Assembly: GCA_037443265.1 (NCBI GenBank)
Contig: JBBIOR010000018.1
Coordinates: forward strand, 1 to 33,836
DNA length: 33,836 nucleotides
Reading direction: 5' to 3'
Origin: Candidatus Fraserbacteria bacterium
GTDB taxonomy: Bacteria; Bipolaricaulota; Bipolaricaulia; RBG-16-55-9
Made by a program: the position numbers. Within the stretch, counting starts at the first letter, position 1, and every line of letters begins with the position of its first letter. Shown here in pieces: positions 18,001-27,000 of the stretch.

Positions 18001-21000
18001 AAGCGCTAAACCATGCTCCAGAAGTCGATGGGATCTTCGTGGAGTTTCCGCTGCCCCCGCGCATCCCGCCGGAGGCGATTCGCGAGGCGATCGCGCCGGA
18101 GAAGGACGTCGATGGGATCACGCCCGTCAATTTGGGAAGATTGCTCATCGGGCAGGAGGGGCTCATCCCGGCCACGCCCTACGGCGTGATGGAGCTTCTG
18201 CGGGCCTCGGGCGTTAAGCTGTGTGGTGCCCATGCCGTCATGGTAGGCCGCAGCGAGATCGTCGGCAGGCCCTTGGCTCTGCTTCTTTTGGCGGCCGACG
18301 CCACGGTCACGATCTGCCACAGCCAGACTCACGCGCTAGGGGAGCACACGCGCCGAGCGGATGTGCTCTGCGTGGCTGTGGGAAGACCCAAACTCATCAC
18401 GGCGGATATGATCAAAGAGGGCGCGGTGGTGATCGACATCGGGCTCAACTCGACTCCTGAAGGCATCGTGGGCGACGTAGATTTCGAGGGAGTAAGAGAG
18501 AAGGCTTCGCTGATTACGCCGGTGCCCGGTGGGGTCGGCCCGATGACGGCCACCATCGTGATGAGGAACACCTTGGAGGCGGCCAAGCGCTTGCGCCTGT
18601 CCGCCTTGAAGAGCTAGAGTGGGCTCATGCTGATTGTCAACATCGGCCAGCTGGTGACTCCTTTGGGCAGCTTGGCCCGAGGCGGCGCGGCCATGGGCCA
18701 GCTCGAGATCTTAGAGGATGCCTATATTAAGATCGTCAAAGGTCAGATCGTCGATGTGGGCGAGATGGGCGATCTCACCCGCTCGCGCCCGCTGCGCGAG
18801 CCTGCTCTGGATGCCCGGCGCGGCGTGGTCATCCCCGGCCTAGTCGATCCCCATACCCATGCCGTGTTTGCCGGCAGCCGCGAGGAAGAGTTTCTCGCGC
18901 GTTGTCAAGGCCAGCCCTACGGAAAGGGGATCCTCACGACCGTAGAGGGCGTGCGCGCGGCCACAGAAGAGCAGCTCTATCGCGAGTCCAAGCGCTTCTT
19001 GATGGAGATGCTCAGAGGGGGCACCACCACGGTGGAGATCAAGAGCGGCTACGGCCTAGATACGCCCAACGAACTCAAGATGCTGCGCGTCATTCGACGG
19101 CTCAAGCACGAGCTGCCGATGGAGATCGTGCCGACGTTTCTGGGGGCCCATGCCGTGCCGGATGGTCAAAGTAAATCTGAATATATCGGGGAGATCATCG
19201 GGCGGATGATCCCGCAGGTCAAGGGCAAGCGCCTGGCGGAGTTTTGCGATGTCTTCTGTGAGAGGGGCTTTTTCGATGTGAACGAGGGTCGCGAGATCCT
19301 GCGGGCGGCGCAGGGAGCAGGGCTAAAGCTCAAGATTCACGCGGAGGAGTTCAGCCATTCGCGCGGGGCGGATCTGGCCGCGGAGCTGGGAGCCGTCTCC
19401 GCAGATCATCTCTTGCACATCTCGCCCCAGGGCATGGAGAAGCTCCTCTTAGCAGGCGTTGTCCCCGTTCTTTTGCCGGGGACGGCCTTCACGCTCAATC
19501 TCGACTACGCCCCGGCGCGCGAGATGATCGATCGGGGCTTGCCGGTGGCCTTGGGAACAGACTTTAATCCCGGCACGTGCTTGATCTACTCGATGCTCTT
19601 CATCATGGCTCTGGCCGTGATGAAGATGCGCATGACTCTTGAAGAGGCCCTTACGGCAGCCACGCTCAATGCGGCCGCGGCGCTGGAACGGGCCAGGCAG
19701 ATCGGGAGCCTGGAGCCGGGCAAGCGAGCAGATCTAGTCGTGCTGGATCTCAGTAATTACAAGCAGATTCCTTATTTTATCGGCCATGATCGCGTCCGGG
19801 CGGTGGTCGTGGCCGGGCGGGTCGTGTACGAGAAGCGCCGTGAGATCCCTTCGCCTTAGGGCCTACGCCAAGATCAATCTGGGCTTGAAAGTCTTGGGAA
19901 GACGTCCGGATGGCTACCACGGGATTGACACCCTGTTGCAGAGCATCGATCTGGCGGATGAGTTGTTCTTGCAGCCCAGAGCTGCTGCTGAGATCACGCT
20001 GACGATGGAGCCGGATTTGGGCCTCCCCCTTAGAGAAAATCTAGTCATGCAAGCGGCGCGGCTGATCTTGAGAAGGGCAGGCGTGAGGCGGGGGGTGAGC
20101 ATCCATCTGCGCAAGGAGATTCCCGTGGGGGCGGGCTTGGGCGGGGGCAGCAGCGATGCCGCGGCCGTGCTGGCGGGACTCAACGAGCTGTTGGGGTTGG
20201 GCTTTAGCTTAGAAGAGCTCCAAACTATGGGAGTCGAATTGGGCAGCGATGTGCCTTTCTTCTTGCTGGGGGGCCGTTGTCGGGCCCGAGGCCGAGGAGA
20301 GCTCTTGGAGAAGCTTCCCGAAGATCCCTCTTTGGGTGTGATCGTGCTGTTGGTCCCTCCATTTGCGAAAAGCACGCGGGAAGTCTATGAGGCTTTCGAT
20401 CGTCTCGTGCCGCGCACGCTCCCTTCTTTTTATCCCAACGATCTAGAGGCTGCGGCTTTGGAGATTCACCCGGTGCTGTGGGCGTATCGGGCGTATCTCG
20501 AGCGCGCTGGGGTGCCCTTTGGGTTGAGCGGCAGTGGGCCCACGTATTTTGCGCTGCTTCAGGGCAACGTAGAGGAAGGGCGTTTGGCAGGCCAAGTCCG
20601 GGCTGAACTCGGTTGCCGGGTCTTTCTATGTCGACCCACGCTCTGGGGTCATCAGATCGTGTAAGGAGCAAAAGATGAGTGAGAATCCGACTAGCATGAC
20701 GCCGGCTGACAACCACTTAAATTGGTTCTCGACGAAAGAGTATCGACCCCCTCCTAGAAGGATCATCACACCGATCTGCCTTCCGTGGATGTCATTGAAA
20801 GTGAAGGGAGCTGCTCCCAGGGAACGAAGGCATAGAGACTGTAAGCAAAGTTGTCAGCGATATTGGAAGGATCTACGGGTATCTAAGAAGCCACTGCCTA
20901 CAGCCAACACCGTATTCAGATAGCCGGATGCAACACGCAAAAAGTGCTATGATGCTCACAAGGCAGGAGATATGAAGATCGCCCTCGACGGAAAGGCGGG

Positions 21001-24000: not shown

Positions 24001-27000
24001 CCCAGTAGGCAGCAAAGTCCAGGGAACCGTGGTGGCGATTACGGATTTTGGGGCCTTCGTGCGGCTGGAAGAGGACGTCGAAGGGCTGGTACACGTCTCG
24101 GAACTCTCGTGGGGATTTCCTGAGGACCCGCGGGAGGTCGTCCAAGAAGGCGATGTGGTCGAGGTGGTTGTGCTTGACGTCGACGAGCAGGGCCGGCGCA
24201 TCAGCTTGAGCATGCGCCGCGCTCAACCCGACCCCTGGGAACACATTGAAAAGAAGTATCCCGAGGGGGCCGTGGTCATAGGCAAAGTGACAAAGCTGGT
24301 GGACTTCGGAGCCTTTGTCCAGCTGCAGGAAGGGGTCGAGGCACTCTTGCATATCTCGGAGATGAGCTGGGAGCGGGTCAATCATCCCAGCGAGATCCTC
24401 AAAGAGGGGGACGAGATCACAGTGAAAGTGATCAAGTCGGACGGCGCTCGGCGCAAGATCCGGCTCTCGCTCCGAGAGATGCAGCAAGACCCTTGGCATC
24501 GCTTCGTGGAGGACTACCCCCTGGGCACGGTCGTCCACGGCACGATCACGGAACTCAAGGACTTTGGAGCCTTCTGCAAGATTACCGATGAAGTCGAGGG
24601 GCTGATCCACGTCTCTGAGATCTCAGACGATCGCATTAACAAGCCCTCGGATGCGCTTAAAGTCGGCGATACTGTGAGGGCACGGATCATCGGCATCAAC
24701 GAAGAGAAGCGTCAGGTCCGGCTCTCGTTGCGCAACGTGGACGTACGACCTCAAGAACCCCAATCCAAAGAAGAGGCCAGGCACGAGGCGCTCACCATGA
24801 GGGAGCACCTGCGGGGGAAAGGGCTCGTCTAAGGCCCAAAGCTTTTAGTGACGACCGTGATAGATCATTAAAGATGTCACTAAAAGCTCTGTTGGAGTTC
24901 GTCCTCTTTGCACTGCTGGCCTATCTGATCGGCTCCATTCCGTTCAGCTGGTTCATAGCCCGGCTGGCCCAAGTCGATTTGCGGCGCGTGGGCAGTGGGA
25001 ACATCGGGGCCACGAATGTGGCCCGTTCGGTGGGCCTGCCCTATGGCCTGCTCGCTCTGATCCTCGATGCCGCCAAGGGGAGCGTCCCGGCGTATCTGGC
25101 CCTGAGCTGGTCTGTGCCCATCTGGCTCTCTGGGTTTGCGGTCATCGGGCACAACTGGAGCGCTTTTTTAAAGTTTCAGGGCGGCAAGGGAGTGGCCACC
25201 TCCTTGGGCATTCTGCTGATGCTCTCCCCTCCCGTTCTTGTGCTCACCCTCACGATCTGGGTTCTTGTGGCCGCTACTACTCGCTATGTGTCGCTGGCCT
25301 CGGTCTGGGCACTGCTTCTTTCGCCTCTTCTTCTGCTGCTTTGGGGAGCTCCTCGGGAAGCGATCCTCTTGATGGCCGCGCTAGGAGCTCTAAGCGCCTT
25401 CCAACACCGATCGAATTTCCGGAGATGGCTTGAGGGAAAGGAGCACAAGCTCAGTTGAGCTTCGCTACAATGCGCTCCACGATCTCCTCCGGAGTAAGCG
25501 AGGAAGTATCAATCACAAGATCATAGAAAGATCTATCATGCCAATCCAGCTGATAGATCTCCCGATAGCGCTTCTGCTCGGAGTGCTCCCGTTGCAGCAC
25601 CGCTTGACGCACAGCCTCATAATCACTCGTCTTTTCGCGCTGCATAATCCGTCGGATACGAACCCCAAGCGGCGCCTCGAGGAGGACCTTGAGCGCCTCA
25701 ATATGATTCTTATGGGCGAGATATCCCGTAAGACGGCCTTCGAATACGCCCTCAGGCTTTGTGCGCATCAGCTCTAATATTTGGGCATCGAGATCCTGAT
25801 CGATCTTCCAATGGGTCTCCGCCCTTCTTCCCAGCTCCTCGAGTGAGACTCCGGCTTCACGGCTCATCCGGCGGAAGATCTCGCCTGAGGAGAGGTGATC
25901 CAGCCCCAGCTTTTGGGCTAAGAGCGAGGCTACGGTGCTCTTGCCGCTGCCCGGAGGCCCGCTGATCGTGATCCTCTTCTTCATCACACCCAACTAAAGC
26001 TTTACTCGATGTTTCGGATCTGTTCTCTTAGGCACTCAATATGGTTCTTCATCTCGATGAGCCGCTGGGCGAGCTCGCCGTCGCGGGCCTTGGCGGCCAT
26101 GGTGTTCACCTCGCGGTACATCTCCTGAGCCAGAAAATCGAGCGGTCGACCGGCAGGCTCAGGGCCCTTAAGTGCCTCCTCGGCTGCCCCTAGATGGATC
26201 CTCAAGCGTGCGATCTCTTCAGTGATGTCCGCGCGCTCCGCCCAGAGGGCCACCTCTTGCTCCACCCTCTCGGCGTTGAGCTGGATGTCCGGCTCCAGCG
26301 CGCGAATTCGTTGCTGAAGCCGCTCCCTGTAGAGCCACTTGAGCTGAGTGGCATGAGCTTCCACTTGAGCGAGCGCCTGCTCGAGTGCCCGAAGATGCTG
26401 AGTCAGCTCGGCGGCCAGCGCCTGGCCCTCGCGGCACCGCATCTCCCATGCCGCATCGATGGCCTTCTGAAACGCTTCTTCGAGCACAGGCCATAGGCCC
26501 TCCGGATCCGGAAGGAGCGGCTGGAGCGCGCCTGAAAGCCTCAAGAGATGATCCAGCGAGATGTGCTCATCGAGCCCGAGCTCTTGAGCCAGATGCCGCA
26601 GGGCCTCGTAATGCTGGCGTGCCGTCGCCACGTCGAACGTCAAAGCGGGCCATCCCTCGCGTTGGAGTTGGATGGCTGCCTCTATCCGGCCTCGGCGGAA
26701 GCTCTTGCGGAGCAGTTCCATGGCTCGAAGCTCCAGGGCTTCATAGCCCTCCAGGCCGCGGACTTGGAGATCGAGGTATTTATGATTGAGCGTTTTGATT
26801 TTGACGGAGACGATCCAGCTGTGGCCTTGCGCGGCTCCCTCGCCGTAGCCGGTCATGCTCGTGATCATGTCGGGGAATTATAGATCGTTATGGAGCCAGG
26901 ATCAAAAGAGGAATGAGAAACCGGCGCTATACTCCGGCTGGAGGAATCTCGCGTTCAGGGGCACATTCAATTCCAGTTCGTTAAAGAACTCCAACGAACG

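Follow-up and report, generated by a model that had tools for sequence, protein, structure and literature searches.

Absence of the ribosome-assembly GTPase Der, together with RimM, RsgA and mostly LepA, across genomes of the phylum Bipolaricaulota

The cmk-plsY operon and the place of der

The cmk-plsC-ispH-rpsA-plsY operon of a Candidatus Fraserbacteria genome, a member of Bipolaricaulota, raises the question of how a bacterium builds its ribosomes without the GTPase Der, whose gene we take to lie usually beside plsY or cmk and which was expected here before plsY. Der is essential in E. coli and, in the available text of PMC13278734, is one of the two factors that reconstituting ribosomes in one step requires. 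The window analysed is the whole stretch of 33,836 nucleotides of contig JBBIOR010000018.1, on which the following features were identified:

19786..20664, + strand: ispE, upstream neighbour of the operon (TIGR00154, 202 bits, over cut-off)
20665..20971, no strand: gap before cmk, 307 bases, too short for der
20972..21589, + strand: cmk, cytidylate kinase, 205 aa (TIGR00017, 156 bits, over cut-off)
21644..22294, + strand: plsC-like acyltransferase (TIGR00530, 53.9 bits, below cut-off)
22298..23179, + strand: ispH (TIGR00216, 276.5 bits, over cut-off)
23180..24832, + strand: rpsA, ribosomal protein bS1, 550 aa (NF004952, 602.9 bits, over cut-off)
24833..24873, no strand: gap between rpsA and plsY, 41 bases
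24874..25458, + strand: plsY (TIGR00023, 157.3 bits, over cut-off)

The first-pass annotation had named these five operon genes and described the operon as lacking der. The gene identities were confirmed by profile matches, that of plsC being below cut-off, and the absence of der by the intergenic gaps from ispE to plsY (307, 54, 3, 0 and 41 bases), which leave no room for a gene of 1.3 kb. In seven of seven relatives plsY was found directly after rpsA, and in one relative (G021) the position matching the 307-base gap, after ispE, is occupied by a yihA gene. Furthermore, the cmk product was not fused to Der, as the NCBIfam cmk-Der fusion family (NF007071) matched over the kinase part only; that such a family exists lends indirect support to the usual place of der. 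No Rfam match was obtained in the whole window, nor in the trmD region.

Assembly factors lost and retained across the phylum

The sample consisted of 184 Bipolaricaulota genomes, mostly incomplete bins, two being one-contig genomes; full Der, RimM, RsgA and LepA profiles were run on 121 of them, with domain and other searches performed on all 184. The phylum is called uncultivated in an ecology abstract, with springs at 43-79 C and brines given as habitats in one such abstract, and is apparently free-living, as judged from metagenomes. In the portions of the literature available, its genome sizes are 0.9-4.1 Mb, some members are Wood-Ljungdahl autotrophs, and it accounted for 91% of 16S reads in one brine sediment, with autotrophic pathways reported.

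No genome of the 121 had a match to the full Der profile TIGR03594 over its cut-off of 306.7 (best 144 bits, one domain), and none of the 184 had a match over cut-off to the C-terminal KH-like domain of Der, PF14714 (best 18.5 bits within a 920-aa frame), extending an earlier count of none in 41. The same profile found Der in 29 of 32 chosen genomes outside the phylum, mostly bins, and the control gene trmD was present in 118 of the 121. Controls were over cut-off in 10, 10, 10, 8 and 10 of 14 for TIGR03594, PF14714, RimM, RsgA and LepA, respectively; in the Der search the control genomes of Thermus and Thermotoga were found to keep Der, while the archaea were without it. The best Der-profile matches (120-144 bits, ten loci read) were to proteins with a single G domain, which we presume from their end motifs to be MnmE-like. 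An inventory of PF01926 GTPases in five genomes of five families, one of them closed, gave 7-10 matches per genome, each in a separate ORF and none of a length close to that of YihA. In the source genome five ORFs carried a Der/Obg/Era-type G1 motif, each a single time, and no remnants of der, rimM or rsgA were seen. A split or degenerate Der was rejected, both the KH domain and a second G domain being absent.

On contig C17 of the source genome, rpsP, khpA and trmD were found in succession, the latter two 5 bases apart. The earlier description of an rpsP-khpA-trmD-rplS operon without rimM (C17:30321-32502) omits a gene for a 187-aa SPOUT methyltransferase, which lies between trmD and rplS. 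Across 30 trmD loci, rpsP was upstream in 28, of which 27 had under about 250 bases free and the last held a DUF559 gene; one of the other two was at a contig end and one had another upstream arrangement. RimM, previously reported absent from 31 genomes, was absent from all 121 by TIGR02273 (best E 0.024), as it was from the archaeal control genomes. A reservation that profile searches may miss a very divergent RimM is weakened by the lack of room in the operon and by the sensitivity of TIGR02273, which detects a RimM of another phylum (73.7 bits) that tblastn with E. coli RimM misses.

The circularly permuted GTPase RsgA was likewise absent, with no match to TIGR00157 at E<=1e-5 among the 121 genomes (earlier, 0 of 31). 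This loss alone is ordinary, since 84% of genomes outside the Patescibacteria (CPR) carry RsgA and Thermus, Deinococcus and Caulobacter were missing from the control matches (8 of 14). LepA had been recorded in few genomes (5 of 61), and the number over the TIGR01393 cut-off remained at five among 121 (G049, G012, G007, G023 and G055; 865-887 bits), all of one clade within one order. The LepA_C domain PF06421 was matched in LepA of the phylum with 143.5 bits, and the C-terminal motif is altered in the four f2 proteins. A quick, midpoint-rooted tree of 45 rows (the five phylum loci and 40 of 120 listed homologues) placed the five as one clade on a long stem (SH-aLRT 100). In three of the five genomes the gene is flanked by rpmB and a solute-binding-protein gene, and in four it precedes the latter; in the source genome the two neighbours are still present, at a distance of 4 kb, and lepA is missing. 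The separate clade and the conserved neighbours indicate that lepA was inherited and then lost. The LepA search also returned, as by-catch, BipA-like frames in 7/121.

Further absences go beyond the first-pass annotation. YihA was found in one of 184 genomes, bS21 in none and uL30 in one, that single match being likely a contaminant; for the latter two proteins, absence had earlier been noted in five genomes. RbgA was missing in 5/5 genomes tested, and an E. coli RimP query gave no match in the source genome, RimP having earlier been counted in 24 of 31 genomes. Retention of ObgE, Era, RbfA, YchF and HflX was borne out, and the source genome also keeps RsmA, IF3, RluD, RsfS, bL9, uL11 and uL1. 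Loss of RNase III alongside unlinked rRNA genes was rejected, the enzyme being present in 5/5, and searches for DEAD-box helicases and FtsJ-family proteins gave nothing special.

Genes that are present and merely too divergent, split or unassembled might produce the same pattern, given that most genomes are incomplete bins, that RimM is small and fast-evolving, and that the first look for Der scored only 13 candidates per genome with the full profiles covering 121 of 184. However, the two one-contig genomes are also without Der and LepA, the recovery of trmD and of Der in outside genomes was high, and the single-G-domain matches, the missing KH domain and the lack of room in the operons all argue against such an artefact, which is highly improbable; the absences are almost certainly real. 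The phylum could also never have had these factors and have kept an older, simpler assembly route, as the lack of remnants in the source genome and the absence of the factors from archaea might suggest. This is very unlikely, as der is listed for the last bacterial common ancestor in a supplement row, LepA forms an inherited clade lost beside conserved neighbours, and the trmD operon has the standard order minus rimM, with rimM present in the rpsP-khpA-trmD-rplS order of an Elusimicrobiota genome (G211).

A Drg-like GTPase and changes in the ribosome itself

The best candidate for a protein doing the work of Der was identified on another contig of the source genome:

C3:9334-10323, single copy: Drg/Rbg-like GTPase, 330 aa, with N-terminal helices, a G domain and a TGS domain

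It occurs once per genome in 112 of 121 genomes (41-76% identity), and Pfam assigned it an Obg-class G domain and TGS. The nearest solved structures were yeast Rbg2 and Rbg1 (E 1e-22), and its N-terminal helical region, G domain and C-terminal TGS align with those of archaeal and eukaryotic Drg. The middle of its G domain has about 58 residues fewer, the two aligned segments being separated by 68 residues as compared with 126 in Rbg2. No S5D2L insertion, which we take to be a Drg/Rbg feature, was found, nor was PF16897 among the domains listed. In a single-sequence model the N-terminal helices were predicted with pLDDT of 84-91, the whole-model mean being 43.

Changes in the rRNAs were also identified. 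In 16S rRNA, 13 changes were fixed in six genomes against four outgroups, among them U20C and A915G (C20-G915, central pseudoknot; 6/6), the former presumably mismatching the usual 5' 16S primer site. A word containing G915 had 105 matches in 185,579 genomes; of the 80 listed, 51 were titled as Bipolaricaulota and 16 more agreed with these in 79-82 of 82 bases. Helix h44 is 83-89 bases long against 96-101, and uS11 of the source genome has a truncated tail, ending in ITPISHS. In 23S rRNA ten changes were fixed (18 sequences against six outgroups), including a G1840C/C1902G pair swap at the base of H68. At conserved columns the phylum, with 51-71 differences against 56-160 in outgroups, is not more divergent, and its 23S measures 2955-3101 bases without introns, some reaching 4.5 kb with them. 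H78 was 35 bases in 20/20, with H76-78 and uL1 intact, and a CPR-like loss of uL1/H78 was therefore rejected. In the closed genome G001 a single 16S gene (at 1,417,441) and a single 23S gene (at 627,499) are unlinked, and eight regions beside 23S genes contained no 16S. A phylum-specific structured RNA acting as a U3-like guide was rejected, its longest perfect 16S complement being 10 bases, as in shuffles, as was an uL10-bL12 fusion as a phylum trait (absent in 5/5 relatives). A Thermogutta genome, considered as a fifth Der-bearing genome with a short H68, was found to have the long form in its full-length 23S.

Replacement of Der by another protein is suggested by the Drg-like GTPase being as steady as a core gene, by its resemblance to Rbg2 and Rbg1, and by the fact that descriptions of the family usually come from archaea and eukaryotes, both lacking Der; the available part of a review places DRG outside bacteria (PMC8629797). 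Unlike archaeal and eukaryotic Drg, however, the protein is shared with other, Der-bearing bacterial phyla: clusters like it are most frequent in Aminicenantota, Planctomycetota and Chloroflexota, and copies 43-44% identical occur in Dehalococcoidia and Thermogutta genomes that have Der. An exclusive substitute was rejected on this coexistence (2/5 outgroups). In addition, G211 had neither Der nor the Drg-like protein in the part read, and Drg proteins are described, in the text available, as acting on stalled translating ribosomes, not on the E-site side of the pre-50S. Replacement is unlikely. Alternatively, changes in rRNA and ribosomal proteins may have removed the folding traps for which Der and RimM are otherwise needed, independently of temperature and growth rate. 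The fixed 16S and 23S changes, the swap at the H68 base, the short h44 and the uS11 end are in keeping with this, as is G211, which has its own C20-G915 and no Der in the nine-tenths read. Yet a short H68, common in Alphaproteobacteria, Chloroflexota and Thermus, accompanies Der in 4/4 outgroups with a short full-length 23S, and the C1840-G1902 pair occurs in 17/17 Der-bearing Planctomycetota genomes, for which reasons both were rejected as causes of the loss. Moreover, C20-G915 lies in the small subunit and has no direct bearing on Der. RimM and LepA are both present in G211, Der is retained in three other genomes that carry the G915 word, and H76-78 and uL1 are intact. Such rewiring is unlikely.

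Ribosome assembly with few factors

The best reading, held tentatively and at slightly under even chances, is a stem-lineage loss followed by factor-light assembly. The common ancestor of Bipolaricaulota would have lost Der, RimM, RsgA, YihA, bS21 and uL30, with YbeY, and most lines would later have lost LepA. In the large subunit, only ObgE would remain of the successive E. coli GTPases YihA, Der and ObgE, which would require the L1 stalk and helices 68-69 to dock by spontaneous refolding. The small subunit still has Era, RbfA and RsmA, and RbfA would be taken off by IF3 in place of RsgA, IF3 having been described to release RbfA (PMC7145577, in the part available). This may be made tolerable by slow production of rRNA from single, separately transcribed 16S and 23S genes and by a probably hot ancestral habitat, with small co-adaptations (C20-G915, short h44, cut uS11 tail) possibly helping. 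In the accessible text of PMC13278734 the E. coli 50S assembles factor-free with stepped heat and Mg, EngA and ObgE replacing the steps, and bioRxiv 2026.02.15.706057 describes YihA, EngA and ObgE as successive placeholders, Der holding H68 from docking.

Several points stand against this reading. In the E. coli system no activity was obtained with ObgE by itself, and the Mg step was more important than the heat step (PMC13278734). Heat alone does not free cells from Der, since the thermophiles Thermus and Thermotoga keep it. Changes near the site of Der in this phylum are also found with Der present. Deletions of lepA and rsgA show a harmful synthetic effect in E. coli (PMC4245954, as far as available), so that relaxed selection on each gene would not suffice to explain the loss of both. 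As for the rRNA changes, of which every phylum has some that are fixed, those of Bipolaricaulota are candidates for an effect on folding rather than demonstrated replacements for a factor.

Loss of Der and RimM as such is already described for Patescibacteria. In the available text of Amikura et al. 2025 (PMC12641178), Der is found in 38% of CPR against 99.2% of others, RimM in 0.4% against 94.9%, RsgA in 6.1% against 83.9% and YihA in 13.5% against 76.2%, and uL30 is often missing in CPR (PMC9297842). Like these, Bipolaricaulota lost Der, RimM, RsgA, YihA and uL30, and rRNA introns occur in both. In contrast, the loss of Der is complete across Bipolaricaulota and proceeds class by class in CPR. 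LepA, nearly gone here (5/121), and BipA, rare here (7/121 as by-catch of the LepA search), are kept in 91.5% and 85.9% of CPR, whereas Era, HflX, RbfA, RsfS and ObgE, kept here, are often lost in CPR (PMC12641178). Some CPR classes have a shortened H78 or have lost uL1/bL9, all intact in Bipolaricaulota, whose rRNAs are full length or longer, unlike the reduced Patescibacteria system. With the late 50S pathway of E. coli, YihA-EngA (Der)-ObgE, as given in the accessible parts of bioRxiv 2026.02.15.706057 and PMC13278734, the phylum shares ObgE, RluD, RsfS, uL1 and H74-78; it differs in YihA (1/184), the Der KH domain (0/184) and RbgA (missing in 5/5).

Loss of YbeY with a truncated uS11 in Bipolaricaulota is already in print (bioRxiv 2026.08.26.747336), and the truncation was seen in the source genome too. 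That work, in the part available, concerns YbeY, Fap7 and uS11; the absence of bS21 is added here and agrees with its comment that bacteria without YbeY may be without this protein. Among the literature found, no paper named loss of Der, RimM or LepA in Bipolaricaulota; one sentence of PMC12641178 notes the low factor count of one genome, for which its Fig. 1b/2a may show the loss, and the bioRxiv supplements may bear on it. As der and rimM are listed among the GTDB bac120 markers, Bipolaricaulota are by nature without part of that marker set.

In its fullest form, the proposal is of an entire phylum of self-sufficient bacteria with a full-sized ribosome, in whose maturation ObgE is the sole GTPase dedicated to the large subunit, without Der, YihA, RbgA, RimM, RsgA, YbeY and mostly LepA, its rRNA and proteins having evolved to fold unaided and the Drg-like GTPase possibly standing in; this is conceivable, with the balance leaning somewhat against it. 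With ribosomes of ordinary size and an ability to dominate a habitat, Bipolaricaulota offer material for asking what the true need for Der, RimM and LepA is, and their rRNA and protein set is a candidate for cell-free ribosome assembly. If the proposal is true, they would hold a natural self-assembling bacterial ribosome, reached independently of Patescibacteria as a second route, and an Elusimicrobiota lineage hints at a third.

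Absence of Der from the phylum

The Der (EngA) profile TIGR03594 was over its cut-off of 306.7 in none of 121 genomes of Bipolaricaulota, the phylum also called Acetothermia or OP1 (63 at least 90% complete, two of one contig), and over it in 10 of 14 controls, these being all ten bacterial ones. The Der-specific KH domain was over cut-off in 0/184 phylum genomes, which rules out a split der gene. The phylum-wide absence proposed in the first-pass annotation is thereby upheld, and ribosome biogenesis without Der, here across a whole phylum, is a confirmed observation. The search is regarded as reliable on bins because trmD was recovered in 118/121 phylum genomes and Der, using the same method, in 5/5 and 24/27 genomes outside the phylum; that Der and the other factors are present but were missed is very improbable.

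The top TIGR03594 matches within the phylum (120-144 bits) span a single G domain. The ten best loci are frames of 465-507 aa with one G1 motif each, whose ends we take to be of the MnmE type. MnmE-like genes are patchy, being strong in families f3, f7, f8, f9 and f10 (L001-L010) and not seen in the Fraserbacteria genome or the closed genome G001. When GTPases were counted with PF01926 in five genomes, each of a different family, there were 7-10 per genome, none matched twice.

The Fraserbacteria assembly (1.69 Mb, 44 contigs, 88% complete) carries on contig C18, the window, the operon cmk-plsC-ispH-rpsA-plsY with successive gaps of 54, 3, 0 and 41 bases. In 7/7 relatives plsY lies immediately 3' of rpsA, a junction that is presumably the usual site of der. 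Other features of the window were:
3610-8937 (+), three adjoining genes sharing out glutamate-synthase-like domains, all below cut-off
25451-25993 (-), archaeal-type cytidylate kinase (TIGR02173 over cut-off), converging on plsY and additional to the bacterial cmk
27150-33789 (-), five large genes side by side with GC lowered to 0.52-0.53 and weak NosD/beta-helix matches in three of the five; a relative (L011) has similar genes near the operon

Other assembly factors lost and kept

RimM was found in 0/121 phylum genomes by profile search (best E 0.024). The earlier caveat that a divergent RimM might escape is weakened: a divergent RimM from a different phylum, overlooked when E. coli RimM is the query, is caught by the profile, and rimM would not fit at 27 of the 28 trmD loci that are informative, the 28th being occupied by a DUF559 gene. 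In 30/30 loci (L046-L075; C17:31591-32154 in Fraserbacteria), trmD and rplS are separated by a gene for a PF09936 SPOUT methyltransferase. RsgA likewise matched 0/121 genomes, as had been claimed, but the same profile was silent in three control bacteria.

LepA, previously noted in few genomes, was detected in 5/121, every one in the order of Fraserbacteria. In a quick tree these five fall within a single well-supported clade of 17 rows, separate from the other 28. The gene is flanked by rpmB and a solute-binding-protein gene in three of the five; on Fraserbacteria contig C1 both neighbours are retained with an ABC cassette in between, and lepA is missing. The C-terminal motif is altered in LepA proteins of family f2. 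Tree and gene order suggest that LepA was inherited and then lost repeatedly; acquisition of the gene long ago by this order is also conceivable.

YihA was found in one of 184 genomes (G021), its gene (L225, C3:14676-15215) coming directly after ispE, in the counterpart of the window's hutI-ispE-plsC region and within a stretch of lower GC. This genome additionally carries a divergent bipA, and both are likely transfers. RbgA was found in 0/5 genomes tested. The reported absence of uL30 and bS21 extends to the larger set: bS21 matched 0/184 genomes, an absence that is not rare given that only 6/14 controls match, and uL30 matched one of 184, where the 68% GC contig and archaeal-type operon (L243, G137:C83) point to probable haloarchaeal contamination of a Bipolaricaulota bin.

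All five factors described as kept are present in Fraserbacteria: Era, RbfA and YchF, together with ObgE and HflX, which were picked up by motif scan and whose names we assign from motifs and cross-matches. RsmA, IF3, RluD, RsfS, SmpB, bL9 and uL11 are also retained, and so is the E. coli S10-spc-alpha block except for rpmD (27 of 28 genes). ARAGORN found no tmRNA in this genome, though SmpB is present, and E. coli TruB, RlmH, RimP and bL35 as single queries gave no match there. Contig C7 further holds:
17246-18328, a 361-aa NusG with a NusG_add insertion
15094-16047 (-, L024), rplJ and rplL fused in one 318-aa frame (uL10-bL12) with a ribosome-binding site ahead of the internal bL12 start; the two are separate in 5/5 relatives

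Ribosomal RNA and comparison with Patescibacteria

Amikura et al. 2025 (PMC12641178) give der at 99.2% outside and 38.0% inside Patescibacteria (CPR), lepA at 99.4% and 91.5%, and rimM at 94.9% and 0.4%. One sentence there credits Bipolaricaulota with fewer factors than CPR, with too few genomes (n=1); the supplement gives the accession of that genome a single time, among the genomes it lists. In Patescibacteria, loss of der is described as accompanying loss of uL1 or H78 (PMC12641178). In Bipolaricaulota, by contrast, der loss is total and LepA is lost too, whereas Era, RbfA, HflX, uL1, bL9 and H78 are kept; a CPR-type loss of uL1 or H78 was rejected, the L1 stalk having E. coli length in 20/20 23S genes. 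No publication naming these losses for Bipolaricaulota was found in a search that lay outside figures and preprint supplements.

H68 is shortened by 9 bases in 20/20 phylum 23S genes, and was rejected as the cause of Der independence because four Der-bearing outgroups share it. With two intron-bearing genes dropped, ten otherwise invariant 23S columns were changed in 18 phylum genes compared to six outgroups, including G1840C/C1902G at the base of H68. This swap, with 94 matches in the genome collection, was likewise rejected as the cause, as Der is kept in 17/17 Planctomycetota genomes carrying it. Several phylum 23S genes contain insertions, one of them in H69, and reach up to 4.5 kb in total length (L076-L095).

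In 16S, 13 columns were changed in six phylum genes versus four outgroups, among them U20C and A915G (central pseudoknot), A1080G, C1383U and G1416C/C1484G; positions 20 and 915 are described as part of a base triple (PMC3914948). Helix h44 has 83-89 bases in the phylum versus 96-101 in outgroups. The G915 word had 105 matches among 185,579 genomes, and among the 80 listed, 51 are titled as Bipolaricaulota, 16 are near-identical to those and 13 have other titles. The Fraserbacteria uS11 is truncated ahead of its Asn-Gly tail, a truncation published together with YbeY loss (bioRxiv 2026.08.26.747336). The small subunit thus bears real phylum marks near the action sites of the lost factors, any causal role of these marks in factor independence being putative.

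Two genomes titled Endomicrobia/Elusimicrobia (G211, G212), chosen for carrying G915, gave no Der match. Single-query tblastn over 1.47 Mb (L482-L603) of G211 (~1.6 Mb, 85 contigs) found no Der, Era, RsgA, YihA or BipA. G211 has its own C20 and G915 pair and plsY-gpsA without der upstream, and keeps RimM, LepA, RbfA, ObgE and an intact uS11. These genomes are a lead only, possibly another Der-less lineage.

Ribosome assembly without Der

One GTPase was considered as a candidate replacement for Der:
C3:9334-10323 (Fraserbacteria), Drg/Rbg-like GTPase of 330 aa, adjoining rtcB in divergent orientation
It is single copy in 112/121 phylum genomes, its closest solved structures being yeast Rbg2/Rbg1; a review holds DRG to be absent from bacteria (PMC8629797). 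However, it coexists at the same identity with Der in two outgroup genomes, and similar clusters come from several other bacterial phyla. It stays a candidate, and replacement of Der by another protein is unlikely. It is equally doubtful that specific rRNA changes freed the ribosome from the lost factors, and that the phylum never had them is scarcely credible.

In E. coli, YihA, EngA and ObgE are reported to keep rRNA blocks open in turn; EngA holds back H68-69 and gives the L1 stalk its shape (bioRxiv 2026.02.15.706057). EngA and ObgE together do the work of the heat and Mg steps in vitro, ObgE alone having no effect in that system (PMC13278734). IF3 is able to remove RbfA (PMC7145577), LepA is linked to stabilisation of the 30S head (PMC12787274) and RimM also binds the head (PMC8177701). 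Closed genome G001 has a single 16S gene (C1:1417441) and a single 23S gene (C1:627499), unlinked and 790 kb apart, suggesting low ribosome output. RNase III is kept.

Given that heat and Mg steps can stand in for EngA and ObgE, that IF3 can remove RbfA and that the rRNA genes of one closed genome are single and unlinked, we tentatively favour loss in the stem lineage, against which thermophiles that keep Der are a main weakness. Following such a loss in the ancestor of Bipolaricaulota, late folding of the ribosome would be slow and largely spontaneous, and may be checked by ObgE and by Era, RbfA, RsmA and IF3.
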